In this document: in pieces, positions 10,180 to 57,611 of the stretch
Layout of the letters: every line of letters begins with the position of its first letter
Position numbering within the stretch: position 1 is the first letter of the stretch
DNA from: a virus
DNA: 64,000 nucleotides
Virus record (IMG/VR): IMGVR_UViG_3300045988_141640
Location: 1-64,000 of that record
Direction: 5' to 3' (one strand)
Notes under the pieces: generated by a model
Told to the model about the DNA's origin: nothing
Databases searched by the model: none
The model's input: only the letters and a program-made list of their open reading frames with translations
Position numbers and translations under genes: made by a program

Positions 10180-11127
10180 TCAATTTTCTTCAAATCCTAT
10201 AATCTTGTCTATGCCTTTGTCGAAGTCATCATTAGATTTACTTTTAACTTCATTAATATCCTCATTAAACTCTAACTCTAATTGAATAGGTTTAGCATTA
10301 TATTTCCTCTCAAACAGTTCATTAAATTCTGATTTGGATTTAGAAATAGACATTAATGTGGTAACTTCTATAATCTGTTTTTTCAGGTGTTCTCTACCTA
10401 TTTCTGGTGTTAATGATTGATGCCATTTGTATTTCCAATTTCCTTTATCCGTTTTTCCCGTTTTCTCCTTAATTTTGTCAACAACTCCATCAGATAATAA
10501 ATCATAAATATACTTAGTTGTTAATTTACCAATAAAAGATGGCTTGTTTTTAATGTATTTAGGTATAAAAGGTAGCCCCCATAATCTATACACTTCTCTA
10601 TAAAAATCATCTGTAAAGGTTAATTGCCATTTCAAAATTTCTTCAGAAATATAAGCACTAAGGATTTTTTGCAATTCAAAATGTTCTCGTTCATTTTGAT
10701 ACCCAGTAGCTTCATCAATAAGGGCAATTATACCAATCTTAGCAAATGAAGATAATAAAATTTCGCATTGATTAGCAACTATTTGTTGTCTTTCTGTCAT
10801 TTTGACTCCACTGCGCCTAGCTCTTAAAATAGCCTCACAAATATCGGTCAAAACAGTAGCCTCATAACCATTAATTCGCTGTTTACCTTTAAAGCATATA
10901 ATTGGATCAAAATGTGCCGCGTCTTTATTGCTGAAAATGAAAGGTTTAAGTATTGAATTTGATAGGAACTGTGGCAATTTTGTGCCGCTTATATTCCCAT
11001 CAACTACTTTTAATATTTCTTGCATTTTCCTTCCTGATAGAACTCTTGTCCCATCTTCTAATACATAACATGGCAATTTGTTTTCACCAAGATTTAAAGT
11101 TCCTTCGTATTTTATTTGATTATCCAT
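10180..11127 (-). CDS. P63C domain protein
   Basis: N-terminus GTLNLGENKLPCYVLEDGTRVLSGR and central IIALIDEATGYQNEREHFELQKIL resemble the phage Mx8 p63 C-terminal (P63C) family. Confidence 0.6.
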   Translation of the reverse strand: MDNQIKYEGTLNLGENKLPCYVLEDGTRVLSGRKMQEILKVVDGNISGTKLPQFLSNSILKPFIFSNKDAAHFDPIICFKGKQRINGYEATVLTDICEAILRARRSGVKMTERQQIVANQCEILLSSFAKIGIIALIDEATGYQNEREHFELQKILSAYISEEILKWQLTFTDDFYREVYRLWGLPFIPKYIKNKPSFIGKLTTKYIYDLLSDGVVDKIKEKTGKTDKGNWKYKWHQSLTPEIGREHLKKQIIEVTTLMSISKSKSEFNELFERKYNAKPIQLELEFNEDINEVKSKSNDDFDKGIDKIIGFEEN

Positions 11128-12073
11128 ATACTAATTCTTTGTAAGTTAATCTACATTCAATATTCTGCAAAAATAAATCAAATCTTTCTTTATCAGATAA
11201 AGAGCGAGTGTTAAAACGATACACACACTCGTCAATATAACGTTGCATGTGTTGTTTAGACCAATGGTAGTATATACCCATAATACTTCTTTTCACTAAA
11301 GCCCAAAATCCTTCGATGTGATTTGTTGTCAGATCACCACTACCATAAAATCCTGCTCCATGATTTACATTTCTATGGTTGTAGTAAATATTAGCCCCAT
11401 CACTATAATTCCATTCGTCTGTATAAAGATTACTACCTTCTTTCACGTAATTATGAATAACAGAGAAAAGGGTATTTGATTTTGTGTCAGAAACAACTTT
11501 AGCAATAACCCTACCATTACGTTGAATCATTCCGAATACAGGTATTTTATCTTTGAAACTTCTACCTTGACAAGCCTTTACTTTCTTGTCTGCATGACGA
11601 TTTTTATTCTTCCCACCAATAAAAGTTTCATCTACCTCAATAGTACCACTCAATTTACCACCATCACTGTCATTATTGTCATCTTCATTTGACTTATCGT
11701 TTTCTATACCTAAAGCCTTTCTGATTCTGTGAAGCATAAACCATGCAGTTTTCTGAGTTACCCCAATATCTTTACTTAATTGTATTGAAGATATACCTTT
11801 TTTGTGGGATAATACAAGCCATATAGCCATAAACCAATAAATTAAAGGTAGGGAGGTTTTATGAAAAATAAGTTTAGTCTTAACATTAAAGTATTTTCCA
11901 GTGTTTTTACAACGATATTTATTATCTTTGCATTTGTAGACTTTGGAAGTAGGATCAAAAGGGGAAACGACCTTTGCACCCCACCTTCTTTCTTCCAGAT
12001 AATCTATACAGTGCTGTTCTGTTGGGAAAGCATCTTGTAAATCTTTTAATGATTTGAATCTACTATTAAACAT
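11120..12073 (-). CDS. IS1595-family (ISXO2-like) transposase
   Basis: N-terminal zinc-ribbon region (HCIDYLEERRWG...KCKDNKYRCKNTGK), an HTH segment (ISSIQLSKDIGVTQKTAWFMLHRIRKAL) and a DDE core; overlaps the P63C gene by 8 nt. Confidence 0.85.
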   Translation of the reverse strand: MFNSRFKSLKDLQDAFPTEQHCIDYLEERRWGAKVVSPFDPTSKVYKCKDNKYRCKNTGKYFNVKTKLIFHKTSLPLIYWFMAIWLVLSHKKGISSIQLSKDIGVTQKTAWFMLHRIRKALGIENDKSNEDDNNDSDGGKLSGTIEVDETFIGGKNKNRHADKKVKACQGRSFKDKIPVFGMIQRNGRVIAKVVSDTKSNTLFSVIHNYVKEGSNLYTDEWNYSDGANIYYNHRNVNHGAGFYGSGDLTTNHIEGFWALVKRSIMGIYYHWSKQHMQRYIDECVYRFNTRSLSDKERFDLFLQNIECRLTYKELVYG

Positions 12074-18293: not shown

Positions 18294-19508
18294 ATGCAAT
18301 TAGTTTATAAATTTGATATCAACCATTCTGACAGGCTTTGCTCTATCTGCCGTGTTACGAACAACCTGTACAACCAGGCGTTGTATATCATTCGTAACGA
18401 GTTGAAGGATAACGACAGGTGGCTGTTCTATCCCGACTTGGACAGGATAATGAAAAATGTCACCAACCTTGAAGGTACGGTAAATTACAGGCTTGTGAAA
18501 TCACACGTAGCCCAACAGACATTGCGCGTGCTTGATAAGGCAATGAAGGGATATGTCAAGGCAGTAAAGGATTGGGCGAAGAATCCGGAGAAGTATAACG
18601 GCAAGCCCGAACTGCCATGCTATCACAAACGGGGAGGGATGAGCAATGCTATATATACCAACCAGTCGTGCAAGATACATGACGGGTATATAATACTTGA
18701 CCGTGACTTGAAAATACCCGTTCCGCAATGGGAGAAGTACAAGGACAGAATCGAACGGTTCAAACAGGTTAGGATAATTCCAAAACGTACATACATGACC
18801 GTGGAGGTTGTATATGATTGTGTCTGTTCGGATAATGTCGGTACGGGTATGGCTTCGATAGACTTGGGTGTGAACAACCTTGCCACGCTGGTTTGCGGAT
18901 GCAATGCGCTGCTGTTTTCCGGCAAGGTTGTCAAGTCATACAACAGATGGTTTAACAAAACATTATCCATGCTGCAATCCATAAAGGACAGGCAGGGGAT
19001 AGAGAAACTGACAAACAGAATGAGAAAGATGTATGAGAAACGTGAACGGTTTATGAATGATGCGATGCACAAGACAAGCAGGCGTATTGTTGATTATCTT
19101 GTATCACACCATATAGGCACTCTTGCTGTAGGCTACAACAAAGGATGGAAGCAATCCGTCAATATGGGCGGAGTAAACAATCAGAAGTTTACATTCATCC
19201 CTTTTGCGAGGTTGAGAAGCTGCCTTAGATACAAGTGTGAGATTGCAGGTATCAACTATATCGAACATGAGGAAAGTTACACTAGCAAATGTGACGCTCT
19301 ATCTATGGAGGATATATGCAAGCATGATATCTATCTCGGTAAGCGTGTCAAGCGAGGACTGTTCAAGTCGGCAGTTGGAAAGGTTATCAATGCCGATGTC
19401 AACGGTGCGCTTAATATAGGTAGAAAAGTATTCGGTGATTCTTTTATGATAACTGATAGTGGGCGTTGGTATCGTCCCGAACGGATTAACGTTTTAAAAT
19501 GTGTGTAA
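18294..19508 (+). CDS. tnpB: TnpB-family RuvC nuclease (IS200/IS605 OrfB-like), zinc finger absent
   Basis: RuvC triad candidates SIDLGVNN, HEESYTSKC and INADVNGALNI. The segment between the second and third motifs lacks the CxxC...CxxC pairs present in the neighbouring TnpB. Confidence 0.8.
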   Translation: MQLVYKFDINHSDRLCSICRVTNNLYNQALYIIRNELKDNDRWLFYPDLDRIMKNVTNLEGTVNYRLVKSHVAQQTLRVLDKAMKGYVKAVKDWAKNPEKYNGKPELPCYHKRGGMSNAIYTNQSCKIHDGYIILDRDLKIPVPQWEKYKDRIERFKQVRIIPKRTYMTVEVVYDCVCSDNVGTGMASIDLGVNNLATLVCGCNALLFSGKVVKSYNRWFNKTLSMLQSIKDRQGIEKLTNRMRKMYEKRERFMNDAMHKTSRRIVDYLVSHHIGTLAVGYNKGWKQSVNMGGVNNQKFTFIPFARLRSCLRYKCEIAGINYIEHEESYTSKCDALSMEDICKHDIYLGKRVKRGLFKSAVGKVINADVNGALNIGRKVFGDSFMITDSGRWYRPERINVLKCV

Positions 19509-20529: not shown

Positions 20530-21720
20530 ATGCTGAGAGCCTACAAATATAGAATATATCCGACAGACGAACAGAAGGTTTTGCTTGCCAAGACCTTCGG
20601 CTGCTGTCGCTTTGTCTATAACTGGGCACTCAAGCTAAAGATTGAAGTATATGAACATGAGAAAAAGTCCGTATCATACAAGACTGTTCAGGATATTATG
20701 GTTAACGAATTGAAGAAAGATAAACAATGGCTTAACGAAGTAAATTCACAAGCCCTTCTTAATTCCATCCGCAATCTTGACACCGCCTTTAAGAACTTTT
20801 TCCGTGATACTCATGCAGTAGGCTTCCCTAAATTAAAAAGCAAAAAGGACAGGCAGAGTTTTCAGTGCCCCCAGCATTGTGTCGTGGATTTCGGCAAAGG
20901 AACAATCACCATACCGAAAGTAAAGGATATTCCTGCTGTGTTTCACCGTAAATTCAAGGGAATGGTCAAAACCGTCACCATCAGCATGACACCATCGAGA
21001 AAATACTTCGCTTCCGTATTGGTTGACACGGACATTGAAGAACTTCCGACAACACCGATACATGGCGATACGTGTTTGGGTATAGATTTGGGTATAAAAT
21101 CACTTGCCGTATGTTCTGACGGGAGAACGTTTGACAACCCGAAAAACCTGCGACGAAGCCTTGATCGTTTGAAACTACTTCAAAAGCGGTTGAGCCGCAA
21201 AAAGAAAGGTTCTGCCAACCGAAACAAGGCACGCATTCGCGTAGCTAGGTTGCATGAACATATTGCCAATTGCCGTAAGGATAACCTTCACAAAATCACC
21301 TATGCACTGACGCACGACAGCCAAGTGCGTACCATCTGCATGGAGGATTTGAACGTGAAAGGAATGATGCAAAACCACCACTTGGCACAGGCAGTAGGTG
21401 ACGCATCTTTCGGGATGTTTCTTACGCTGCTTAAATACAAATGCAGTTGGTATGGTGTGAACCTCATTCAGATAAACCGATTTGCCCCAAGCTCAAAGAC
21501 TTGCGGAAAATGCGGCTATGTGTATAAAGGATTGAAACTTAGCGATCGCAGTTGGATCTGCCCGGAATGTGGCACACACCATGACCGTGACTTCAATGCA
21601 GCTTGCAATATAAAGGAATTTGGCTTAAAATCCCTACCCACGGAGCGTGGGAAAGTTAAGCCTGTGGACTGTCCTAAAAAGCAATGGCAGGAAGAAGCAG
21701 GAAGAAGCTCATGCCTTTAG
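20530..21720 (+). CDS. tnpB: TnpB RNA-guided endonuclease family protein
   Basis: MLRAYKYRIYPT N-terminus; RuvC motifs GIDLGIK, CMEDLNVKGM and DRDFNAACNI; zinc finger CGKCG...CPECG. Confidence 0.9.
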   Translation: MLRAYKYRIYPTDEQKVLLAKTFGCCRFVYNWALKLKIEVYEHEKKSVSYKTVQDIMVNELKKDKQWLNEVNSQALLNSIRNLDTAFKNFFRDTHAVGFPKLKSKKDRQSFQCPQHCVVDFGKGTITIPKVKDIPAVFHRKFKGMVKTVTISMTPSRKYFASVLVDTDIEELPTTPIHGDTCLGIDLGIKSLAVCSDGRTFDNPKNLRRSLDRLKLLQKRLSRKKKGSANRNKARIRVARLHEHIANCRKDNLHKITYALTHDSQVRTICMEDLNVKGMMQNHHLAQAVGDASFGMFLTLLKYKCSWYGVNLIQINRFAPSSKTCGKCGYVYKGLKLSDRSWICPECGTHHDRDFNAACNIKEFGLKSLPTERGKVKPVDCPKKQWQEEAGRSSCL

Positions 21721-46190: not shown

Positions 46191-46225
46191 CCAGTTTGAT
46201 TATGAACAAAAAATCCAATCACTTG

Positions 46226-46297
46226 AGGTGCTTAGCGGAATCGAACCGCTGTTGTCGGTTTTGCAGACCGTTGACTAAACCACTCATCCAAAGCACC
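46226..46297 (-). tRNA. tRNA-Cys: tRNA-Cys (anticodon GCA)
   Basis: Hand fold of the reverse complement: acceptor GGTGCTT/AAGCACC, T arm AGCGG-TTCGATT-CCGCT, anticodon loop CTGCAAA, D loop with GG. A -7 box TATATTTG lies at 46308-46315 on the same strand. Confidence 0.8.
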
Positions 46298-46894: not shown

Positions 46895-49800
46895 ATGATT
46901 TTACAGATTAAAAGAGGAAATAAGGTTATTGCGGAGAGTGCTGATTTCTCATACAGCCCGTCTTTGCAGGAAGTGAGAAAATTGACTTGTGAAGTCGTTT
47001 CCGTTGTTCCGATAGAGTTCAAGGCATACAACTCAAAGAGTGAATCGGAATACGATACAGTCGTATATAACGGTAATACATTCATCCTGTACCAAGCCCC
47101 ATCGGGAGATAATCTTAACGAAGCAGGAAAATACAAATACTCCCTTCTGTTTTACGGTAAGGAGGTGCTTTTGCAGAATGTGGCATTTCTTGACATAGTA
47201 AGCGGAACAGGTGGGGAAATAAATAAGATAAGATACACTCATGGCGGTCTGTTCCAGTTCTGGGGTGATGCAAAACAGCTTGCCGCACGTATAGAAGCAA
47301 ATATAGAATCTTACAATGCGTCATTGGGTGCAGGATATACAGGCATTGGCACATGGACGCTCAACGTGGATGCGGAAGGCGAACTGACGGAGGATATGAT
47401 TGATATAACCGATGGGACCAACCTGTTTGAAGCATTGAAGAACTTCTATGACAAGTTTTATCTCAATTATTACTTCTCAACGACAGCGAACGGTGGGATA
47501 ATAACCATTACGGACAAGACAAGACCGTCCGTAAACTGGACATTCAAGCAGGGTGACGGTGGGGGTGCTGTAAAAGTTTCCTCTTCCGTAGATACAAGCA
47601 CACCTGTCATAACCCGAATCATACCACAAGGTGGAAGCAGGAACGTTCCTCCCGAATACAAGAAAGACGCTAAGCCTGCCGATGAATCACGCTATTGCCC
47701 GTACATCCTTCTTCCGAATGATTCTGACAGGAATATAAGATATTATATTGACAGCGAATACGGATTGAAGAACTATGGTGTGAGAGGAAAAACCATATCA
47801 AACACGTTCAGTGGGATATACCCTTCCATCAGAGGGAAAAAACTTGGCGATCTGTACCCGTCAGGACTTCCAGAATGGGATACATACAAGGCGGATGGAG
47901 AACCAGACCCTCAATCGGGTAAGGTGGCAGGTGAGGGTGCTAGCGCATCTACACGGATAGACAAGATTATCGGTTCTACTCCTATAAAGAGTGATGATAG
48001 TGACAGTTTCTTCATTTATATGACCTCTCCCGGATTCAACCTAGGGTACAAAGTATATGAGGACGGTGATTCATCCGACAAGATAAACGACAATGTGCAG
48101 CCCCAGTACAAACCCCATGCTATGTTTGACAAGTACAGGGATTTCGAGAGTTTTGATATATATGGTACAAGGGCATATTATGACCAGCCTGTAAAGGTTA
48201 CTGCCACATTCTCCGGGAAGATGCTTTTCAGTATATTACCTATAGGAAGTGATGCTGTAGGGAAAAAGGTGAAGATTAACCTACGTATGGTTTTAAACCG
48301 TGTATTGGGTCAGGCTTCTCCATTGAAAGAGGTTGTTATCGGAGAGGAAGGTGCTACTGGTATGCTTGAAATACCTTACGACAAGACCTCTCTTGTAGGA
48401 TATATAGAAAAAGGTCAGAATACGACAGTCACCATACGTGTTGAGTTCACGTTTGATTCTGATATCCCTGCCGAAAGCTGTAAGATAGGCTTTAGTGAGG
48501 AAATGACATGCAACATACATTTCGGTAATCAGGACGGTTCACAGGACAGGTTCTATTATAAATACGCTTCTGTAACGGACGCGGTGTTCAGTATGCGTAC
48601 AGGAACTTATACAGGCACGGAATTTAAGATAAACAAAAACGGTATTATTCCTCTTTACGGTGAGGTGAACGGTGATACGGGGGAAACGGAAGAGGATGTT
48701 GCCATGTTTAATAAGGGGGCACGATATAAAATATCATGTTACAGAACAGATAGCGACAATGCCAAACTTCCCCTTTACACAGATGGTAAATCTCCTTCAA
48801 TTGCGGCAGGAACGGAATTTGTCATTCTGAATATCGTCATGCCCGAATCTTATGTGACAATGGCTGAGAACACGCTTGAAAAGGCGGCTCTTGACTACCT
48901 GTCAAGATATGACCATGAGAACCGAACCGTTTCACTTGACATATCTAGCGGATTTGTCGCAGAGCATCCTAACCTTTTCATTGACTTCATAGAAGGAAAT
49001 ATGCTAAAGGTAAGGGATGATGGAATAGGCGTGTTCGATTTCTCTGATAACGGTCAGATAGTGGATATGCAGTTGCAGATACAGTCTTTGGAAATTAAAT
49101 ATTCCAAGGATAATATGTTCCCGTCATATTCATGCACCATTGCAAGAAGAAAGATACTGTCTTTCTATGAACGGTTGGCACAGGAAAATCAAACGGCTTC
49201 AACGCAGAATACGACAAATATAACATTGGGTGGAAGTGGTACGGGAAGCGGAACGGGAAGCGGCGGTGGAAGTAGCAATATAACCAATGCCGATCATGCT
49301 AAATCCGCATACACACTAGACGATGATACCCCTGTGCTTAATTGGTTTTTGTCAGCACTGAATGACGATGAAGCGGAAGGTATAATCAATTTTCTTAAAG
49401 GTCTTAAGATATCCGGGAATCTGATAAACCGCATTGTGAAGCAGGGTGACAGGGATGTTACCTACACCGATGAAGACGTGATGAGCGCATTACGTGTAAT
49501 GGTTGAGATAGAGAACAGTGTGGAGAAGATGAAAGAGATATTCTTGCGGAAGGACGTGGCGGATTCCACTAAGTTCCTTCTCAGCATGTTTGCCGGTGCT
49601 GTTTTCGGGAAGAATGGTTTTGCAAGCGGCTTGACCGGATTCGGAGCCAAGATATTCGATACAGGGCATGGAGAGTTTGAGAGCATGTTTATCCGCCGGT
49701 TCCTTGAAGTTCCCGAATTAAGATACAATCGTGTGATGGTCACGCTGGGCGACAAGTGGCGTGCGCCCGGAGCTGGTATTATAGAAACAGTAGATACAGG

Positions 49801-52699
49801 AACCAAAACATGTACACTTAAACTGGAAGATGGTGAGATCGGAGCTGTCGCAGTAGGTGATATCTGTATGGGTATCTATCATAACATCACTGGGAATGCT
49901 ACGGAGGATTATGACGATGGAAAGGGCAACAGGCGTTTTGCCGGATTCTGTACGGTCTATTTCACAATCACGGAAGTCACAGGTGAAAGAAACGAAACAT
50001 TCAAATACCAGTTGCGTCCTACATCTTCATCGTGGTCTTCTTCTTTCGATCCATTTGAAATGATGACATTCGTTGCATATGGTAACTTTACCAATGCAGG
50101 CCGTCAGACCTCAGTCTACGAAACAAGGACTTACACCCGTATGTTGTGGAAGCAGAATACATGGGAGATCTCCGCTGCCAATGTTGCCCTGCAATATGGA
50201 GACCTTTCTAATCTGAATATATTCGGATTGAACATGGATGGTTACTCCATGTATCTGAATAATATATATATGACAGGTATTATCAAGCAGATAAAGCCGG
50301 ACGGAACACCTGTACAGACTTTGAATTTCCGTGAGGAAGGATATATACCTGGCGTACATTACGATTACTACGACAGCTTGTCTTATAACGGAAGCATGTG
50401 GGCGTGTATCAATGAGGATGGTTCGTCTGCTGCACCGGGATCTAACGGCGATTGGCTGGAGATTGCTTCTAAAGGTGATACGGGAGCACCGGGGGCACCG
50501 GGAAAGGACGGTGTGAGCGTGACCAATAGCGGTCCGTGGTATTCCGGCTTGGTTGTTCCCAAAATGAGTATCGTTACAATGGGAGGAAGTTCGTTTCTTT
50601 CTAAGGTATCCACTACCAATCCTCCCTTGTGGTGCTGGACAGACAATGCCGGTAATCGGTTTACTTTCAATGATGGTGGCTATTGCTTGACGGGTGAGAT
50701 AAATACCGATGAATATGAACTTTTGGTTCAAAGCGGAAAGGACGGAAGAGATGGTACCAGTTATGAGAGGGTATTCATCCATACTACAACAGAGAGTAAA
50801 CCTGCCACTCCTTCCACGTCACAGACAGACGATTATGTGCCTTCCGGCTGGCATGATGATCCTGTAGGTGTTTCCAGCTCTCTGCCTTATGAGTGGATCA
50901 GTGAGAGGGAGAAGAAAAACGGTATATGGAGTAAATTCAGTGCTCCTGCCCTTTGGGCGAAGTACGGATTTGATGGTGCTGACGGTGCTGAGGGCGTAGC
51001 CGGAACGAGCATCATTTGGAAAGGTGATTTTTCCTCCGCTCCTTCCAATCCTCAGAACGGGTGGGCATACAAGAATACCACTGATAAGAAATCATATGTA
51101 TATCAGGATGGACAGTGGTATCAGATGACTATTGACGGAATTGATGGGAAGAACGGAAAAGACGGATTGAGTATTGTATGGAAAGGAGATCTCCAAACAC
51201 CTCCTTCTAATCCTCAGACCAACTGGGCATACCGGGATACCAATAATGGTCGTGTATATATATGGAACGGAACAGCATGGGCATTGATGGTTGTGGACGG
51301 ATCGGACGGTGCTGATGGTGCAGCCGGTTCTGACGGATTGAGCGTGTTTATAACTTATAATGACAGCACTTCCCAACCTTCTGTACCTACCGGGAACGGT
51401 ACTACTGGAGGATGGCATACAAATGCGACAAGTACAGCCATATGGATGTCACAGAAGGTTGCTGCGTCCGCATCTGACGGAGCATGGGGTACACCGATAA
51501 AAATCAAAGGTGACAAGGGTGATGATGGTGAAAAGGGGGACAAAGGAGATAAGGGAGATAAGGGAGATAAGGGAGATAAGGGAGATCAGGGCGTACAAGG
51601 AATACAGGGCTGTATCATACGGGATTCCGAATGGACAACCGGGGTAACGTACAGAAATGACGAAGCCCTTACAAGCGGCACGCGGTATATTGATATCGTA
51701 ATGGTGAGAAACAATAGTGCGGTGGACGGATGGGATGTTTATAAGTGTATTAAAACACATACATCTTCGTCTTCTATAACCTATACTAACACTACCTACT
51801 GGACGGAATTAAGTAATGTTGGTCCCATCTATACCAGTCTTATTATTGCCAAGAACGCCAGTCTTGATTTCGTCCAAGGGAATGAACTGATAATAAAGGA
51901 TTCGAATAATAATGTCGTAGCCGGTCTTACAGGAGGAAGCAGCAAGGAAGCCGGTACGACACCTGTAAGGATATGGGCTGGCGGTGGTGTTCCGGGCAGT
52001 GCTCCGTTCCGGGTGGATCAGGAAGGGAATCTTGTTGCAACGAAGGCAAATATCACGGGGACAATAACTGCCACAGGTGGAAATATTGGCGGTTTCAATA
52101 TTTCCACCTCAAGTATGGAATCGGTTTCCGGGAATAATGCCATGCTCCTTTCCGCCAACTTGGTAAGATTTACCGGAAGTTATTCAAGCGTGTTTATTGG
52201 AGCGGATACTTTTCCTTCATCTAGTGGGGGGGCAATATTATGCCCATCCCGTATTTCGGTTAATAGGAATATAACGAATACGGCGTATGGCAATGTGGGC
52301 ATGTATTTTGACATACAAGGTTCCCATGCTTATGATGATAATGATTTTCAGTATACCGGGAATCATGCGTTGTATATCGTCAAGGGGGACATCTGTGGGT
52401 TTAGGCTCAGATTGCGCAGAATAAGCAAGAGCACAACTTTGTCAGTGATGGATAGTGTTATCATGGCTGTAACGTCCGGTATTACGCTGACTGTTCCGTC
52501 CACTGCGGAAGACGGGCAGTTCTACTGGATAAGAAACGTTTCTGGTGGTAATGTGACCATAGCCGGAACAAATCTTGTCGGCTGGAATTCCGGGGAGGTC
52601 AGCACTTCGATAGGTTTGTCCAAGTCAAAGGCGGCAGCAATGTATTATGACAAGCATAATAACAAGTGGTTTATGAACTGGATTGATTGTTGGAATTAA
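46895..52699 (+). CDS. giant tail tip / host-specificity fibre protein with collagen-like repeats, 1934 aa
   Basis: Position after the tape-measure and Dit-like genes. Contains G-X-Y runs (GDTGAPGAPGKDG; GDKGDDGEKGDKGDKGDKGDKGDKGDQGVQGIQG), duplicated about 55-aa WKGD...W.Y modules and a GGSGTGSGTGSGGGSS linker. Confidence 0.65.
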   Translation: MILQIKRGNKVIAESADFSYSPSLQEVRKLTCEVVSVVPIEFKAYNSKSESEYDTVVYNGNTFILYQAPSGDNLNEAGKYKYSLLFYGKEVLLQNVAFLDIVSGTGGEINKIRYTHGGLFQFWGDAKQLAARIEANIESYNASLGAGYTGIGTWTLNVDAEGELTEDMIDITDGTNLFEALKNFYDKFYLNYYFSTTANGGIITITDKTRPSVNWTFKQGDGGGAVKVSSSVDTSTPVITRIIPQGGSRNVPPEYKKDAKPADESRYCPYILLPNDSDRNIRYYIDSEYGLKNYGVRGKTISNTFSGIYPSIRGKKLGDLYPSGLPEWDTYKADGEPDPQSGKVAGEGASASTRIDKIIGSTPIKSDDSDSFFIYMTSPGFNLGYKVYEDGDSSDKINDNVQPQYKPHAMFDKYRDFESFDIYGTRAYYDQPVKVTATFSGKMLFSILPIGSDAVGKKVKINLRMVLNRVLGQASPLKEVVIGEEGATGMLEIPYDKTSLVGYIEKGQNTTVTIRVEFTFDSDIPAESCKIGFSEEMTCNIHFGNQDGSQDRFYYKYASVTDAVFSMRTGTYTGTEFKINKNGIIPLYGEVNGDTGETEEDVAMFNKGARYKISCYRTDSDNAKLPLYTDGKSPSIAAGTEFVILNIVMPESYVTMAENTLEKAALDYLSRYDHENRTVSLDISSGFVAEHPNLFIDFIEGNMLKVRDDGIGVFDFSDNGQIVDMQLQIQSLEIKYSKDNMFPSYSCTIARRKILSFYERLAQENQTASTQNTTNITLGGSGTGSGTGSGGGSSNITNADHAKSAYTLDDDTPVLNWFLSALNDDEAEGIINFLKGLKISGNLINRIVKQGDRDVTYTDEDVMSALRVMVEIENSVEKMKEIFLRKDVADSTKFLLSMFAGAVFGKNGFASGLTGFGAKIFDTGHGEFESMFIRRFLEVPELRYNRVMVTLGDKWRAPGAGIIETVDTGTKTCTLKLEDGEIGAVAVGDICMGIYHNITGNATEDYDDGKGNRRFAGFCTVYFTITEVTGERNETFKYQLRPTSSSWSSSFDPFEMMTFVAYGNFTNAGRQTSVYETRTYTRMLWKQNTWEISAANVALQYGDLSNLNIFGLNMDGYSMYLNNIYMTGIIKQIKPDGTPVQTLNFREEGYIPGVHYDYYDSLSYNGSMWACINEDGSSAAPGSNGDWLEIASKGDTGAPGAPGKDGVSVTNSGPWYSGLVVPKMSIVTMGGSSFLSKVSTTNPPLWCWTDNAGNRFTFNDGGYCLTGEINTDEYELLVQSGKDGRDGTSYERVFIHTTTESKPATPSTSQTDDYVPSGWHDDPVGVSSSLPYEWISEREKKNGIWSKFSAPALWAKYGFDGADGAEGVAGTSIIWKGDFSSAPSNPQNGWAYKNTTDKKSYVYQDGQWYQMTIDGIDGKNGKDGLSIVWKGDLQTPPSNPQTNWAYRDTNNGRVYIWNGTAWALMVVDGSDGADGAAGSDGLSVFITYNDSTSQPSVPTGNGTTGGWHTNATSTAIWMSQKVAASASDGAWGTPIKIKGDKGDDGEKGDKGDKGDKGDKGDKGDQGVQGIQGCIIRDSEWTTGVTYRNDEALTSGTRYIDIVMVRNNSAVDGWDVYKCIKTHTSSSSITYTNTTYWTELSNVGPIYTSLIIAKNASLDFVQGNELIIKDSNNNVVAGLTGGSSKEAGTTPVRIWAGGGVPGSAPFRVDQEGNLVATKANITGTITATGGNIGGFNISTSSMESVSGNNAMLLSANLVRFTGSYSSVFIGADTFPSSSGGAILCPSRISVNRNITNTAYGNVGMYFDIQGSHAYDDNDFQYTGNHALYIVKGDICGFRLRLRRISKSTTLSVMDSVIMAVTSGITLTVPSTAEDGQFYWIRNVSGGNVTIAGTNLVGWNSGEVSTSIGLSKSKAAAMYYDKHNNKWFMNWIDCWN
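51545..51589 (+). repeat. 9-bp tandem repeat (GGAGATAAG x4 plus GGAGATCAG) encoding GDK collagen triplets
   Basis: Read directly from the sequence. Confidence 0.85.
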
Positions 52700-52710
52700 A
52701 AATATAAATT

Positions 52711-52992
52711 ATGAAAATAGATTTTACAAAATTTCCTTGTTACACAGGGATAAAGAAGGATATCAGAGTTGAGATGGATATTGCGGAGTCATTGGCTAAT
52801 GCCATATACACAAATGTTCCGGGCATAGCCGCCAGTTCTTTGGCTCATAAGATTTACTCTGGCAAGGGAGAAGTAGATTACGATGAACGGGAAATACGAA
52901 TTATACGTGATTGTACACCGTTATTTTCTGGAGTTTATGCGGATTCCATAAACGATTATTTGGACACAAAAGAAAAGGAGGAACAAGGATGA
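52711..52992 (+). CDS. hypothetical tail-module protein, 93 aa
   Basis: ORF track. Confidence 0.45.
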   Translation: MKIDFTKFPCYTGIKKDIRVEMDIAESLANAIYTNVPGIAASSLAHKIYSGKGEVDYDEREIRIIRDCTPLFSGVYADSINDYLDTKEKEEQG

Positions 52993-53618
52993 TATTACAA
53001 GCAGGTTATGATTGTTATCTGACACAGGCCGAGGATATGCCTCTGTCGGAACGAAGATTTGAAAATCAGGTAGTAATAAACAGCCCTGAGGATGTGGCTG
53101 TGTGGAAAGAGATCACATCGAAACAGAAGGAGCAGATGATTGCCGAAGCATCATTTATTGATGTGGCGGCTATAGACGTTGAAGCACTTGGCCGTGTGAA
53201 TACGCTGCTCAATGATATTGCGGCAAACATCAACAATGCCGGACTTACTGTAGAGGAAGCATTGGCGAAGAAAGAGTACTTCCCCGCATGGGAGGATCTG
53301 ATAGGTACAGAGGTTGATGTGTCGTTCCGGTTCCGTTACGATGGTACACTCTATGAGGTTATACAGAAACATACACCGCAGGAGGACTGGAAGCCGGGAA
53401 CGGGTACGGAATCCTTGTACAAGGTTGTGCAGATAGAGCACTCCGGCACACTGGATGATCCTATACCTTGGGTACATAACATGGTGCTGGAAGAAGGCAA
53501 GTATTACACCGATAAGGAGGTTCTTTATCTCTGTATCCGTGACAGCGGAATAGGCATGGCATTTGACTTGGGAAATATTGTTTCGGGCGGATATGTTCAA
53601 GTAGTAATAAATAATTAA
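52989..53618 (+). CDS. hypothetical tail-module protein, 209 aa
   Basis: ORF track 52911-53618; start moved to the ATGA overlap at 52989 (MILQAGYD). Confidence 0.45.
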   Translation: MILQAGYDCYLTQAEDMPLSERRFENQVVINSPEDVAVWKEITSKQKEQMIAEASFIDVAAIDVEALGRVNTLLNDIAANINNAGLTVEEALAKKEYFPAWEDLIGTEVDVSFRFRYDGTLYEVIQKHTPQEDWKPGTGTESLYKVVQIEHSGTLDDPIPWVHNMVLEEGKYYTDKEVLYLCIRDSGIGMAFDLGNIVSGGYVQVVINN

Positions 53619-53630
53619 AAAAATACGATT

Positions 53631-54020
53631 ATGGCAGACAAAAAATTAAATCAAGTATCGCAGTTGACGGATTTTGATTATGCGTTGGTTGTAAAAGGGG
53701 ATGACGTGGCAAAAGTTACAAAACAGCAGCTAGCTACAATACTGGGAGGACTGATGAATAGTTTGAAGCTGTTCCCGTTCATGAATAAAGGGAGATTAAC
53801 AGGAACAGATGACTTAAATAATGTATTAACATCAGGAATCTATGAAATTAGTGCCCCTACAACAGGGGTACTAAATGGGAAAGATATTCAATACGGAATC
53901 TTAATAGTATTCTCAGCAGGACAAAGAATACAGTTATTAGGTAATGGCTTATACGGAAATGCATATTTTAGGACAGGTAGAGATAATGGAACATGGTATG
54001 ATTGGGTATCTATATATTGA
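53631..54020 (+). CDS. small tail-fibre / receptor-binding protein: constant N-terminus (aa 1-37) plus currently expressed shufflon cassette A
   Basis: Fibre-like N-terminus KLNQVSQLTDFDYALVVKGDDVAKVTKQQLATI; crossover motif at codons 38-42 (LGGLM). Confidence 0.65.
   Translation: MADKKLNQVSQLTDFDYALVVKGDDVAKVTKQQLATILGGLMNSLKLFPFMNKGRLTGTDDLNNVLTSGIYEISAPTTGVLNGKDIQYGILIVFSAGQRIQLLGNGLYGNAYFRTGRDNGTWYDWVSIY
53742..53755 (+). repeat. shufflon crossover site S1 CTGGGAGGACTGAT
   Basis: First of seven copies of CTGGGRGRACT; lies inside the expressed gene. Confidence 0.7.
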
Positions 54021-54044
54021 CATAAAATCTATTCGAAACGAGAG

Positions 54045-54058
54045 CTGGGAGGACTGAT
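54045..54058 (+). repeat. shufflon site S2 CTGGGAGGACTGAT (direct orientation)
   Basis: Identical 14 nt to S1; in frame with cassette B. Confidence 0.7.
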
Positions 54059-54335
54059 TCCTACCGCAAGTAATAAAAATAAAGGTTTAGTTGCTCCTGA
54101 TATGTTCTCATTTACAAGGGATGCCGTAACAGACGCTAATGGTTGTAGTGTATTCGGTAGTTACAAGTTGTCCCCCGGAGTCTTGAATGCCCCTGATGGA
54201 ATTAAATATGGTGATGTGTTATTCGCCGTTCCATGGGATACAAACACAATACACCAATTTATATATACGATTAGCGGAGGTACGTATAGAAGGGTTGGAG
54301 GAAAAGAAAATTGGAGTGAATGGGTAAAAGATTGA
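54059..54335 (+). other. silent C-terminal cassette B (92 codons after LGGL)
   Basis: Reads LGGL-IPTASNKNKGLVAPDMFSF...; same frame as the active gene but separated from it by its stop codon. Confidence 0.6.
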
Positions 54336-54386
54336 CAAGAAAAAGTGGTATTTCCACGAACTGGGGGAATTCTTGGGTATAAAAAA

Positions 54387-54417
54387 CGGGTGGTCCGGTA
54401 CAAGCCGGTTCCACCCG
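54387..54417. terminator. bidirectional hairpin between convergent cassettes B and C
   Basis: CGGGTGG-T-CCGG...CCGG-TT-CCACCCG. Confidence 0.5.
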
Positions 54418-54427
54418 ATACGACAAA

Positions 54428-54695
54428 TCACTTATAATACGCTAATAGCCTATAATGAAGTTTTCGGCTAGTATTAGAATGAAAAGTTACACCATTTGAA
54501 CTAAACTCTATAGATAAGCTGGTTGATTTTTCACCTGCAATAATCTTACTTCTATCAGTATAAATATTGTCCGAAACTGTTAGGATGAAGCCGGAGATTG
54601 CATAATTATCATAAAACGCATATATGCCTTCTCGCAACTTCATGTTTACATCAACATCAGGCTTTAAATCAATTGTTCCAACTGAAGAAACCTCT
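54428..54695 (-). other. silent inverted cassette C (89 codons after LGGL)
   Basis: In frame with S3; the track M is a TTG; no ATG near the 5' end. Confidence 0.6.
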
Positions 54696-54709
54696 AGAAG
54701 TCCCCCCAG
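54696..54709 (-). repeat. shufflon site S3 (CTGGGGGGACTTCT on the minus strand)
   Basis: Inverted copy of the core. Confidence 0.65.
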
Positions 54710-54757
54710 TCCGCAGAGTGGGAGAAATTTTGTTGCAAATCTTTCCAATAAAATTGT

Positions 54758-55022
54758 CTATTGTTTAAGCATAAACTCCTTAAATATTCCCCATCCGTTA
54801 TAAAAACGCCTAAAGCCAACGCTATCGAAACCAATAGTATATACAATTTGTACGATATATCCAGCTGCGTCATTGTAAACAATCATAATGGAATAGTCCG
54901 GAACAACATTAATATTTCCACTCCCAAACAAACGATATATTCCATTTTCTTTAGTATTGTTTACTTCATCGTTTGTTTTGCAGGTCCCTTTTGACATGAA
55001 CGGGAACAATTTTAAATTCCCC
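54758..55022 (-). other. silent inverted cassette D (88 codons; closest homologue of cassette A)
   Basis: MGNLKLFPFMSKG versus MNSLKLFPFMNKG in cassette A. Confidence 0.65.
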
Positions 55023-55036
55023 ATCAGTCCCCCCAG
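55023..55036 (-). repeat. shufflon site S4 (CTGGGGGGACTGAT on the minus strand)
   Basis: 13 of 14 nt identical to S1. Confidence 0.7.
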
Positions 55037-55050
55037 AAGTAAAAAATAGT

Positions 55051-55303
55051 TTACTTGTGCGCAATATTCCTTACTCTGACAGATTCTTCTCCTAATAAAG
55101 CTGTTGCATACAATTTACTTTCTTGTACTCTATACTTGATTCGATAGTCTTTTTCTCCTAATATAAATGAATTATCGTAATTGATTACGACTAAACTTGA
55201 CACGGAATCTAAATAGGAATTTGAAACGTAATAAACACCAGTACCATTTGCTATTAGTGTTTCTTCTCCTTTTGCTAAAGTGAAAGAACTATAGGTATTT
55301 CCT
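55051..55303 (-). other. silent inverted cassette E (84 codons; no start codon, absent from the ORF track)
   Basis: My translation: LGGL-IGNTYSSFTLAKGEETLIANGTGVYYVS...RVRNIAHK-stop. Confidence 0.6.
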
Positions 55304-55317
55304 ATCAGTCCCCCCAG
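55304..55317 (-). repeat. shufflon site S5 (CTGGGGGGACTGAT on the minus strand)
   Basis: Identical to S4. Confidence 0.7.
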
Positions 55318-55342
55318 ATCGCCAACAGGCAGAAATTCTTGT

Positions 55343-55700
55343 TTAAATTCCTACCTGTGTTAGTGTGCTGATATCTATATTTACCTTGGTTGCTGAAATG
55401 GTATTATTCATCGGTATACGGTTAGCAAAACATACTACAGCGTAGCCCCATCCTGCTACATAGACATAATAGTTATCATCATCATCTTTATACATTTTTA
55501 TTGATAACGGTCCAGAATTATGAGTAATACATAAATTATTACCATAACCATGTCCGCAGATAATAGAGTAGTCATCAGCTATTGCTGAATTACCTTCACC
55601 AACAATCTTAACAATCAAATTTTTATTTCTCGTAAAATCAATCCTATATAAAGCCGGAGAGTCTGTGTTTGCTGATAGATTTATATAGTTTCCATTTTGC
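55343..55700 (-). other. silent inverted cassette F (119 codons)
   Basis: In frame with S6; the track M is a TTG. Confidence 0.6.
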
Positions 55701-55714
55701 AGAAGTCCTCCCAG
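55701..55714 (-). repeat. shufflon site S6 (CTGGGAGGACTTCT on the minus strand)
   Basis: Inverted copy; shares the GGACTTCT end with S3. Confidence 0.65.
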
Positions 55715-55733
55715 AAGGATTTTGCTAATCTTC

Positions 55734-56046
55734 TTAAGGCAATAAATTTTGATAAGCAATTAAAAAAGGAACCCTGCTTCCTTCAACTCCTTCAATTTTG
55801 GAAGTCATAATAGTAGTATAGTCATTTTCAAAAGTGAAAGTAAATAATGTTCCATCAACATATTCTTTATACCCTCCAATATATTTTATATTTTTAGTTG
55901 CTGGAGATATTACAGCTATTGATGGATATAAATTATAATATTGACTACATATCACCAATATGCCATTTGCTTTTATTCTTTTTGATTCACCTTTATGTAA
56001 CGAAAATGATTCACTAGTAAAACCATTGATAATATTATTTATCTTT
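55734..56046 (-). other. inverted cassette G (104 codons; has its own ATG two codons upstream of the site)
   Basis: MLLGELLKINNIINGF... Confidence 0.55.
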
Positions 56047-56060
56047 AACAGTTCTCCCAG
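56047..56060 (-). repeat. shufflon site S7, degenerate (CTGGGAGAACTGTT on the minus strand)
   Basis: Most divergent copy; encodes LGEL. Confidence 0.5.
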
Positions 56061-56129
56061 AAGCATTTTTTGTGGTTTATTTTGTAAATACAGAAGATTT
56101 TTTTTTAACTTTAAAACAAAAAGTTGAAT

Positions 56130-57368
56130 ATGTTAGAGAAGATCAGATACCGTTTGGTTTATAACCGACAAAACAAGTTAAATCGACAAGGGACAGCCCT
56201 AGTCCAAATAGAAGCCTATTTGAATCAGAGAAAGGTATATTTTAAAACCAATGTTTATCTAAAGCCGGAGTGTTGGAGTAAGGATGGCGCTCAAGTAATT
56301 AACCATCCGCAATCGAATGAGCTTAACGCAATGCTATACGAGAAGATACTGGAGTTGCAGGCTATAGAACTTAGCTACTGGAAAAGAGGGCTTGAATCAA
56401 ACCTTTCCACGTTAAAGGAGGCTGTAAAAAAGGGAATTAAACCAGTTGTGTCGTTTTTAAAATTTGCAATACAAGCGATAGAGAATTCTGATAGAAAACC
56501 GGGAACCAAGGATAACATGCTGGGCACGGTAGCCACTTTGAAGGAATTTCGGAACGTGATAGAGTTCACAGACATCAATTATACGTTTCTAAAGGAGTTT
56601 GACGCATTTCTTCGCAATAAGGGATTGAAGGTAAACACGGTAGGGAAACACATGAGAATACTTCGTACCTTGGTCAACGAAGCAATAAATGAAGGTTATA
56701 TATTACAGGAGGCATACCCTTTCCGTAAGTTCAAGATCAAGAAAGAGAAGAAGGAGCATAACTTCCTGATGCCCGCAGACTTGGAGAAGCTGGAGAATCT
56801 TGAACTGCCGGACAGGAAGAACAACAGTCGGCACATACTGGACGCATTTCTCTTCTGCTGCTATTGCGGATTGAGATTCTCTGATTTCAAGCAATTGACT
56901 TATAAAAATCTCGTAACAGTTGACGGAAAGGAATGGCTGGTCCTAAACAGCGTCAAAACAGGTGTGAAACTCAATATTCCGCTATATCTGCTGTTTAACG
57001 GGAAGGCTCTGGGTATAATGCGGAAGTACGACAGCATCGAACAACTGGCTGCATTAGGTTGCAATTCGGACACCAATCGGACGTTGCAGAAATTGGGAAG
57101 GATGGCGCGTATCAGCAAGAAATTTACCTACCATACAAGTCGTCATACTTGTGCTACTCTGTTGGTTCACCAAGGCGTTCCGATAACCACCGTCCAAAAA
57201 CTCTTGGGGCATACATCGGTCAAGACAACAGAGATATATTCCGAGGTGTTTGATGAAACGATTATCAAGGATCTGACAAGGGCTAACCAGAAGTATTCTA
57301 AAAGTAGAAATGTAAAACAAAATCAAATAAAATCTCAAAAATACCCGGAAAAATACCTCAGGCAGTAG
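56130..57368 (+). CDS. int: tyrosine recombinase / integrase (IntDOT-like, with N-terminal arm-binding domain)
   Basis: Arg box CGLRFSD, HTSRHTCATLL (HxxR) and LLGHTSVKTTEIYSEV (catalytic Tyr); first ATG at 56130 (track start 56124 is a TTG). Confidence 0.85.
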   Translation: MLEKIRYRLVYNRQNKLNRQGTALVQIEAYLNQRKVYFKTNVYLKPECWSKDGAQVINHPQSNELNAMLYEKILELQAIELSYWKRGLESNLSTLKEAVKKGIKPVVSFLKFAIQAIENSDRKPGTKDNMLGTVATLKEFRNVIEFTDINYTFLKEFDAFLRNKGLKVNTVGKHMRILRTLVNEAINEGYILQEAYPFRKFKIKKEKKEHNFLMPADLEKLENLELPDRKNNSRHILDAFLFCCYCGLRFSDFKQLTYKNLVTVDGKEWLVLNSVKTGVKLNIPLYLLFNGKALGIMRKYDSIEQLAALGCNSDTNRTLQKLGRMARISKKFTYHTSRHTCATLLVHQGVPITTVQKLLGHTSVKTTEIYSEVFDETIIKDLTRANQKYSKSRNVKQNQIKSQKYPEKYLRQ

Positions 57369-57611
57369 AAATCTATAGAGGCTATCTGTTTTATACTTGT
57401 TTTTCCGACTTCAATATATTTATATTCTATTTGTAAATAAAAATGTAAATAATTTACCTTTATTTTTCTATAAATATTTCTTACTGTTCTAGAATTTTTC
57501 CTTATTGTGCTAGAAGTAAAAAATATTGCATTAATAGCAATTTGGTAAGCCTTAACAGTGCGGCATATAAGGGAAGTACATTGCTTCTTTCTATGAGTCC
57601 AGGGTTATAAG

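Follow-up and report, generated by a model that had tools for sequence, protein, structure and literature searches.

A seven-cassette array beside a tyrosine recombinase gene as a probable tail-fibre shufflon in a gut Bacteroidales phage

In a 64,000-nucleotide (nt) stretch of viral DNA (positions 1 to 64,000 of IMG/VR record IMGVR_UViG_3300045988_141640, hereafter the window), a short tail-fibre-like gene at 53631-54020 (+) encodes a protein of 129 amino acids (aa). It is followed by a series of open frames, each headed by the same short motif, and then by a gene for a tyrosine recombinase. This arrangement raises the question of whether the C-terminal part of the protein is swapped by inversion of DNA between copies of the motif, or whether the frames are small genes in their own right or a record of older exchanges. 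The evidence set out below makes it highly probable that the locus switches the distal tip of the phage tail fibre as a multiple-inversion shufflon. The carrier, judged by its genes, is a siphovirus-like phage, and it belongs to the gut Bacteroidales phages.

A motif scan of the window found the core CTGGGRGRACT seven times, twice on the + strand and five times on the - strand. All copies lay inside 53742-56060 and none elsewhere. The expected count was 0.09, and none of 100 shuffles attained seven. The sites begin at 53742 and 54045 on the + strand and at 54709, 55036, 55317, 55714 and 56060 on the - strand, which agrees in all coordinates with the first-pass annotation, where one direct and five inverted copies had been described besides the gene's own. 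Every site was read in frame as L-G-G/E-L (LGGL or LGEL), with a reading frame that stayed open away from the site until a stop codon. The 84-119 open codons that had been claimed after the motif were found again, and amounted to 88-123 when the motif was counted.

The seven cassettes span 2.3 kb. The constant N-terminal segment, which is the expression site, occupies 53631-53741 (+) and encodes 37 aa (MADKK...QQLATI). It runs into site 1 (53742-53752, CTGGGAGGACT), which heads cassette A (53742-54020, +; 92 codons and a stop), the cassette that is expressed in the present arrangement. Site 2 (54045-54055) begins 24 nt past the TGA stop of this gene in the same orientation as site 1, and heads silent cassette B (54045-54335, +; 96 codons). 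The remaining silent cassettes lie on the - strand, oriented back toward the variable gene. These are C at 54428-54709 (93 codons; site 54699-54709, CTGGGGGGACT), D at 54758-55036 (92 codons; site 55026-55036), E at 55051-55317 (88 codons; site 55307-55317), F at 55343-55714 (123 codons; site 55704-55714), and G, with the terminal site, at 55734-56060 (108 codons; site 56050-56060, CTGGGAGAACT). A constant, unstranded spacer of 69 nt (56061-56129), which presumably holds the recombinase promoter, leads from the terminal site to the recombinase gene (56130-57368, +). The product of this gene has 412 aa and matches Pfam PF17293 (Arm-DNA-bind_5), PF13102 (Phage_int_SAM_5) and PF00589 (Phage_integrase), so the tyrosine recombinase previously placed about 70 nt beyond the array was identified as such. 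Its start is the ATG at 56130, 69 nt past the last site; the lister of open reading frames (ORFs) gave a TTG at 56124. The locus thus combines sites in mixed orientation, with three or more crossover sites as in a multiple-inversion shufflon of the R64 type, and the constant 5' coding segment with alternative in-frame 3' segments that characterizes such shufflons. In a simple model, 1440 arrangements are reachable and yield seven products, with cassettes C to G one inversion away from expression and B two.

Could the cassettes instead be independently translated small paralogous genes, with LGGL merely a conserved protein motif? Their start codons argue otherwise. The sole starts for cassettes C and F in the ORF list were upstream TTG codons. 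Cassette E has no start near its site and holds only an internal 50-aa ORF beginning with GTG, and cassette B lies behind the TGA of cassette A, its first ATG being internal (54102). Because they have no usable start of their own, B, C, E and F require fusion, and their dependence on the constant N-terminus, already proposed in the first-pass annotation, was borne out. Cassettes D and G could formally start unaided: D has an ATG immediately after the motif, which is a conserved Met also present in cassette A, and for G an ATG of the constant flank lies in frame, two codons ahead of the motif. Gene callers also predict ORFs over several cassettes. However, the N-termini called for silent copies (P0133, P0134 and P0136) turned out to be unconserved translations of flanking DNA. 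Of 75 arrays, 55 had this ATG of the recombinase-proximal constant flank (CAAAAAATGCTT, 56061-56072; relatives L005-L084), in frame and two codons ahead of the site, but in another 19 a flank variant, AAAATTGTT, lacked it. The sites are moreover conserved at the DNA level, synonymous positions included, and the cassettes are seen fused to real N-terminal anchors elsewhere. Taken together, these observations leave next to no room for independent translation.

Two further uses of these sequences were considered. A second expression site at the recombinase-proximal end was rejected as a general feature because of the arrays whose flank has no ATG; a stand-alone product from the last cassette would be possible in some phages, and not a conserved feature. 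At 54018-54044, the TGA of cassette A is in frame with the 24-nt spacer (HKIYSKRE) and with cassette B, and the same spacer also trails other cassettes, such as K. Several database proteins (P0138 and others) read this TGA as W and continue into the next cassette. Stop-codon readthrough from A into B was rejected, the W being attributed to gene calling under another genetic code.

If the cassettes are joined to the anchor by inversion, relatives should differ in the order and orientation of their cassettes. We searched IMG/VR with the recombinase, obtained 80 loci at 95% identity or higher, and clustered the cassettes into families at 60% identity. Nearly every locus that reached upstream had an array of LG[GE]L-headed cassettes beside the recombinase. 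The arrays held 2-12 cassettes each, from about 70 families in total, and of the 49 families found two or more times, 40 occurred in both orientations relative to the fixed recombinase. Among 49 complete arrays there were 48 arrangements and 45 cassette sets, and with so many different sets exchange between genomes is clearly frequent. Comparison of related contigs for isomers, which the first-pass annotation had put forward as a check, revealed exact site-to-site inversions in two near-identical pairs. The loci L076 (a9+ H+ T- a0-) and L077 (T+ H- a9- a0-) were 99.6-100% identical except for a 1097-nt site-to-site inversion, which swapped the fused cassette from a9 to T. The second pair, L012 and L018, differed by a 1522-nt site-bounded inversion, and L024 could be reached from L012 through four site-bounded inversions.

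The junction between anchor and cassette was equally modular. The 37-aa N-terminus was joined to at least eight cassette families in the protein collection and to at least 27, including C and F, in IMG/VR contigs. Cassette A was in turn joined to at least six other N-termini, with the break always at LG[GE]L, and it lay on the - strand in L034, L058 and L060. An identical cassette B was present on the - strand beside the recombinase in L003, and a B-like cassette was fused to the 37-aa N-terminus in P0140. Cassette C was found on the + strand in four loci (L004, L058, L060 and L071), and P0135 and L099 have it fused to the 37-aa N-terminus. Cassette F occupied the expression site in L103, L107 and L121, and F-like cassettes were fused to 91-aa and 38-aa N-termini (P0141 and P0154). 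Cassette G was fused to a 91-aa N-terminus in P0129 and lay on the + strand in L028 and L037. Homologues of cassette E (L074, and P0138 at about 86% identity) were silent copies only. This comparative evidence supports the structure first proposed, a constant N-terminus and seven C-terminal cassettes with the crossover at the motif.

The sites themselves were conserved in a manner that a protein motif would not require. In 263 unique sites, the first codon was always CTG (100%), the second was only GGA or GGG, and the third ended in A in 262, while the 5' flank was unconserved. Since third positions that could change silently are fixed or restricted to A/G and the 5' flank is free, the site is asymmetric, and the constraint acts on the DNA and not solely on the protein. 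Comparison of the relatives at the sequence level thus establishes natural inversions exactly at these sites, modular cassettes at the junction and a DNA-level constraint on the site. Arrays with up to nine directly repeated sites (L037) persist, from which we infer that inversion is favoured over deletion, as it is in R64.

Assemblies carried a further trace of recombination. Contig ends within 3.3 kb of the recombinase fell on the array side in 31 of the 80 loci, versus 11 of 80 on the other side. In 11 of 42 contigs, the end lay 12-89 nt beyond the base at which the expression site begins. Distances of 55 and 77-78 nt recurred, values that match k-mer lengths in common use by assemblers. 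Breakage of contigs at the array and its sites, as a branch in the assembly graph would produce, suggests heterogeneity within samples.

These results bear on the alternative that the array is an evolutionary record, formed by rare recombination events at a conserved coding motif, homologous or illegitimate, or through horizontal exchange, while single genomes are effectively static. The diversity of the cassette sets would be compatible with such a history, and so would the absence of any isomer of the exact window array, to which we return below. A prophage in Phocaeicola vulgatus also fits it (L136; GCA_024790525.1, JANUKW010000004.1: 5299430-5319972). There, five cassettes all lie on the + strand and are followed by a DDE_5 transposase, with no recombinase within 10 kb, and the array has probably been locked by the insertion sequence (IS). 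However, slow exchange would hardly leave genome pairs of 99.6-100% identity that differ by a single precise inversion, and an identity of 11 bp is too short for efficient homologous recombination. Neither the fixed synonymous positions nor the contigs that break exactly at the site would be expected from it, and in BV01-like phages reads show all configurations within populations (PMC13596623). We therefore regard a static array as very improbable, and recombination at the sites as the better account.

The isomers also indicated where in the site the exchange occurs. In the L076/L077 pair, the sequence from core position 8 onward travelled with the cassette, and that before position 1 stayed with the flank, which places the exchange within CTGGGGG, the first seven nucleotides of the core. 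The second pair was ambiguous at position 8. Position 6 (A or G) was uniform within 55 of 60 arrays, versus about 21 expected, and position 8 was mixed in 42 of 60. This pattern would fit an overlap region within the first seven bases. The uniformity of position 6 may also stem from lineage, as arrays with G there accompany more diverged recombinases.

Several observations weigh against extending the shufflon reading to the window array and its enzyme as they stand. The array is mixed at position 6, with A in the sites of A, B, F and G and G in those of C, D and E. If strand exchange includes this position, the sites of C, D and E may be poor partners for the expression site, which hints that the array contains sites of two compatibility classes. 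An exact look-up among about 15 billion proteins found none of the six alternative fusions of this exact array; only the N-terminus joined to A is on record. No isomer of the exact array was found either, and of the other contigs with the identical gene, L001 has the same order and L002 ends after B. The recombinase has the arm-binding domain PF17293, which is typical of integrases. Given this domain, and since tblastn detected no second integrase in the 64-kb window, a dual or different role of the enzyme is possible.

That last point leads to an alternative in which the sites do recombine but the neighbouring enzyme serves as the phage integrase or in another capacity, the invertase being encoded elsewhere, for example a host enzyme of the Tsr type or another phage recombinase. 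The combination of Arm-DNA-bind_5, SAM_5 and Phage_integrase domains is the architecture of Bacteroidales integrases, the best PHROGs match of the protein is named 'integrase', NCBIfam models for 'tyrosine-type DNA invertase' gave negligible matches, and the window yielded no further tyrosine recombinase. In spite of this, several comparisons tie the recombinase to the array. The terminal site was always on the - strand in relatives, 67-71 nt from the recombinase start. Relative to L012, which has another N-terminus and another backbone, nucleotide homology was confined to 56033-57408, a stretch made up of the recombinase gene with its spacer and terminal site. Enzyme and site thus move as a unit, and have been exchanged together between unrelated backbones. 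In BS-TP2, an isolated temperate phage of Bacteroides salyersiae, a diverged homologue (gp3, 62% identical, named 'integrase') lies beside a four-cassette array. That array, between gp85 and gp3, has a correspondingly diverged site, CTGGAAGRACT (LE[EG]L), and the phage has a separate integrase, gp12. In BV01 there are three PF00589 genes, and experiment assigned the integrase to the one adjoining attP (PMC8354205). Finally, the window recombinase gene stands among tail genes; with such genes on both sides, it lies in the tail module and not in a recognisable lysogeny module.

On the strength of its adjacency at constant spacing, its transfer together with the site, the covariation of enzyme and site in BS-TP2 and the position of the BV01 integrase elsewhere, we consider the adjacent recombinase likely to be the shufflon invertase. 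The motifs GLRFSD (247 onward), HTSRHT (335 onward), LGHTS (359 onward) and EIYSE (368 onward) are predicted to provide the catalytic R, HxxR, H and Y. An invertase encoded elsewhere is unlikely, though less so than the other alternatives weighed here. No serine resolvase or invertase was found among the 30 window ORFs scanned.

Some records of related enzymes are of separate interest. The array of BS-TP2 (L085/L086; PQ571275: 56724-57555, 1-3000) is unannotated, the ends of the record fall within a cassette, and the paper describing that phage makes no mention of an inversion system. Two short contigs, L088 and L089, whose copy of the recombinase is 95-97% identical to that of the window, are assigned to a 'Clostridia' metagenome-assembled genome and an Acinetobacter lwoffii assembly; these host labels are most likely binning errors or contamination.

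What would the switch change? The cassettes had been described as divergent yet related, and this was upheld in part. Cassettes A and D were 43% identical (E 4e-12) and share an 81-nt inverted repeat (I1), and A and B were weakly similar (E 0.003), while C, E, F and G gave no significant similarity to other cassettes of the window. Pfam and NCBIfam scans of the cassettes returned nothing above threshold. Structure modelling took in the fusion with cassette A, for which AlphaFold, with 56 homologues, gave a model of the 129-aa protein at a predicted local distance difference test (pLDDT) score of 83.9. The model has an N-terminal β hairpin (17-30), a helix (31-44) that crosses the LGGL junction, and a C-terminal β sandwich. 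Its best Foldseek matches were R2 pyocin tail fibres (6ct8 and 6cl6; probability 1.00, root-mean-square deviation 2.3-2.4 Å, 87 columns), followed by baseplate proteins of phage phi812 and many viral tail-fibre models. The NCBI name for homologues of the protein is 'pyocin knob domain-containing protein [Phocaeicola vulgatus]'. By this model, cassette A is a pyocin-knob-like tail-fibre domain. Because the modelled helix spans the LGGL junction, the recombination site would lie in the neck between the anchor and a head of the receptor-binding type.

Taken together, these features suggest the following mechanism. The expression site at 53631-53741 would supply an N-terminal anchor of 37 residues ending in a helix that runs through L-G-G/E-L, and each of the seven cassettes, headed by the 11-bp site CTGGGRGRACT, would contribute its own C-terminal domain, some 90-120 residues long. 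The adjacent tyrosine recombinase would pair two oppositely oriented sites and invert the intervening DNA, thereby joining a different cassette in frame to the anchor; the stop codon would change with it. A phage or prophage population would in this way yield virions with different receptor-binding tips. We presume that the tips set the host range and that the array of the window is currently active. In Bacteroidales, DNA inversion diversifies capsules and surface proteins, and variation of the phage tip by inversion would be a matching counter-move to this phase-variable surface of the hosts.

The transfer of the terminal site with the recombinase suggests a further step. We lean, by a modest margin, towards regarding the terminal site, the 69-nt spacer and the recombinase as a self-contained portable module fed by an open, population-wide pool of about 70 cassette families. 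Such a module would have been captured by several unrelated Bacteroidales backbones with at least three N-terminal anchor types, in addition to the diverged version in BS-TP2. If this is true, host range would be diversified at two levels, by fast inversion within a genome and by integron-like exchange of cassettes between genomes.

There are practical consequences as well. Host-range predictions and phage therapy designs that start from a single assembled tail-fibre sequence would be wrong for such phages. The arrays break assemblies, and gene callers yield spurious ORFs over the silent cassettes. The comparison set is a catalogue of cassettes and natural isomers with which tips can be tested against host surfaces, and the recombinase with its 11-bp site may be useful as a compact multi-state DNA switch.

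The surroundings of the array are those of a tail module. Among the genes of the window are those for a large terminase and a major head protein, for a tape measure of 2059 aa and a tail protein of 1934 aa, and for an antirepressor, Rha, KilA-N and a D5-type primase. A series of tail genes ends with the variable gene, and past the recombinase come a cytosine methylase and more tail-like genes. Directly upstream lies a tail-module gene of 209 aa (52989-53618, +), with a weak CBM_5_12 match and matches to PHROGs families of unknown function. It ends 13 nt ahead of the variable gene, is kept in those relatives that share the 37-aa N-terminus, and is probably co-transcribed with the variable gene. 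The 1934-aa tail protein (46895-52699, +) has collagen-like GDK repeats, with a weak match to Pfam Collagen, and a glycine/serine-rich linker. Between the tape-measure gene and the next tail gene, a tRNA-Cys (GCA) is encoded on the opposite strand (46225-46297, -). An extension of 10 kb gained upstream of the window contained small early genes only, and neither the array nor the structural module had a megablast match among GenBank phages.

The window also contains mobile elements. Two TnpB-like ORFs (18294-19508 and 20530-21720, +) match OrfB_IS605 with a Cas12f1-like TNB domain, and the second also matches HTH_OrfB_IS605. At 10180-12073 (-), an IS1595-family transposase (11120-12073) is paired with a P63C-domain gene (10180-11127). 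This pair is present in the ENA contig L093 and missing at the equivalent place in the relatives L090-L092, so the insertion is probably recent.

How does the system compare with those already known? Gin of Mu, Cin of P1, Min of p15B and Pin of e14 likewise switch the C-terminus of a tail fibre by site-specific inversion and change the host range, and Min does so with multiple segments. However, these are serine invertases that work with an enhancer and Fis, whereas the enzyme adjacent to the window array is a tyrosine recombinase (PF00589). The R64/IncI shufflon (Rci, sfx, PilV) is closer in its mechanics. It too has an adjacent tyrosine recombinase, asymmetric sites conserved on one side, inversion of single segments or groups, a constant N-terminus with variable C-termini, and directly repeated sites that persist without deletion. 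It differs in its target, which is a conjugative pilus adhesin, and in its sfx sites, which are longer and unrelated in sequence; the likeness of the recombinases is that of the shared PF00589 fold.

The first-pass annotation had not known of such a system being described in phages of this group, and here it did not stand. The Rin shufflon of Bifidobacterium prophages (Mavrich et al. 2018, PMC6109161) has the same logic, and a BV01-like shufflon has the same core motif, so the claim of novelty fails. Rin was reported as the first phage-encoded tyrosine invertase, acting on five dissimilar C-terminal cassettes, with isomers between prophages and virions (PMC6109161). Like the window system, it is phage-encoded, has a receptor-binding-protein gene with a constant N-terminus and 11-bp asymmetric sites, and is flanked by an invertase of the tyrosine family. 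Its rix site (TTCCCTAACCC) is unrelated, however, and its enzyme has no arm-type DNA-binding domain, in contrast to the PF17293 domain here; there are five cassettes instead of seven, and the host is an actinobacterium. With the arm domain present and a different site sequence, the window system is an analogue of Rin and not a member of that group.

The nearest counterpart is described in a Research Square preprint of 16 Sep 2026 (PMC13596623), which reports an active 1.7-kb tail-fibre shufflon in BV01-like (Salyersviridae) phages of Phocaeicola vulgatus and states that BV01 is missing from reference databases. The lineage concerned is vOTU_0, whose average nucleotide identity to BV01 exceeds 99.7%. 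That array lies between the recombinase and the end of the tail-fibre gene, has a 10-bp motif, TGGGAGAACT, and comprises three segments that give six variants, with all six configurations verified by reads (PMC13596623). The core motif is the same: the terminal site of the window (CTGGGAGAACT) contains TGGGAGAACT exactly, and the other six fit TGGGRGRACT, differing only at the R positions. Both arrays are flanked by a recombinase and overlap the distal end of a tail-fibre gene, and inversion in the BV01-like phages changes the C-terminus and the stop codon, as proposed for the window. A recombinase 98% identical to that of the window was found in a P. vulgatus assembly (L087).

The two systems differ in scale and setting. 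Three segments and six variants over 1.7 kb contrast with seven cassettes over 2.3 kb, and the anchor has 37 aa in the window versus the 88-91-aa type of P. vulgatus prophages. The backbone appears to be different as well: like the N-terminus, it departs from that of prophage copies in P. vulgatus, contigs of the window lineage are about 93-95 kb long, their homology to the other lineage (L012) covers only the recombinase and terminal site, and the 25-bp att site of BV01 is absent from the 64-kb window. Activity was confirmed by reads in the BV01-like phages, whereas for the window it is presumed. The window array is, then, a larger, seven-cassette instance of an already described kind in an apparently different backbone. 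The preprint covers three segments and 'four additional unique sequences' (PMC13596623). Beyond this, the present comparison adds about 70 cassette families, several anchors, a module found across unrelated backbones, and an unannotated variant in the cultured phage BS-TP2.

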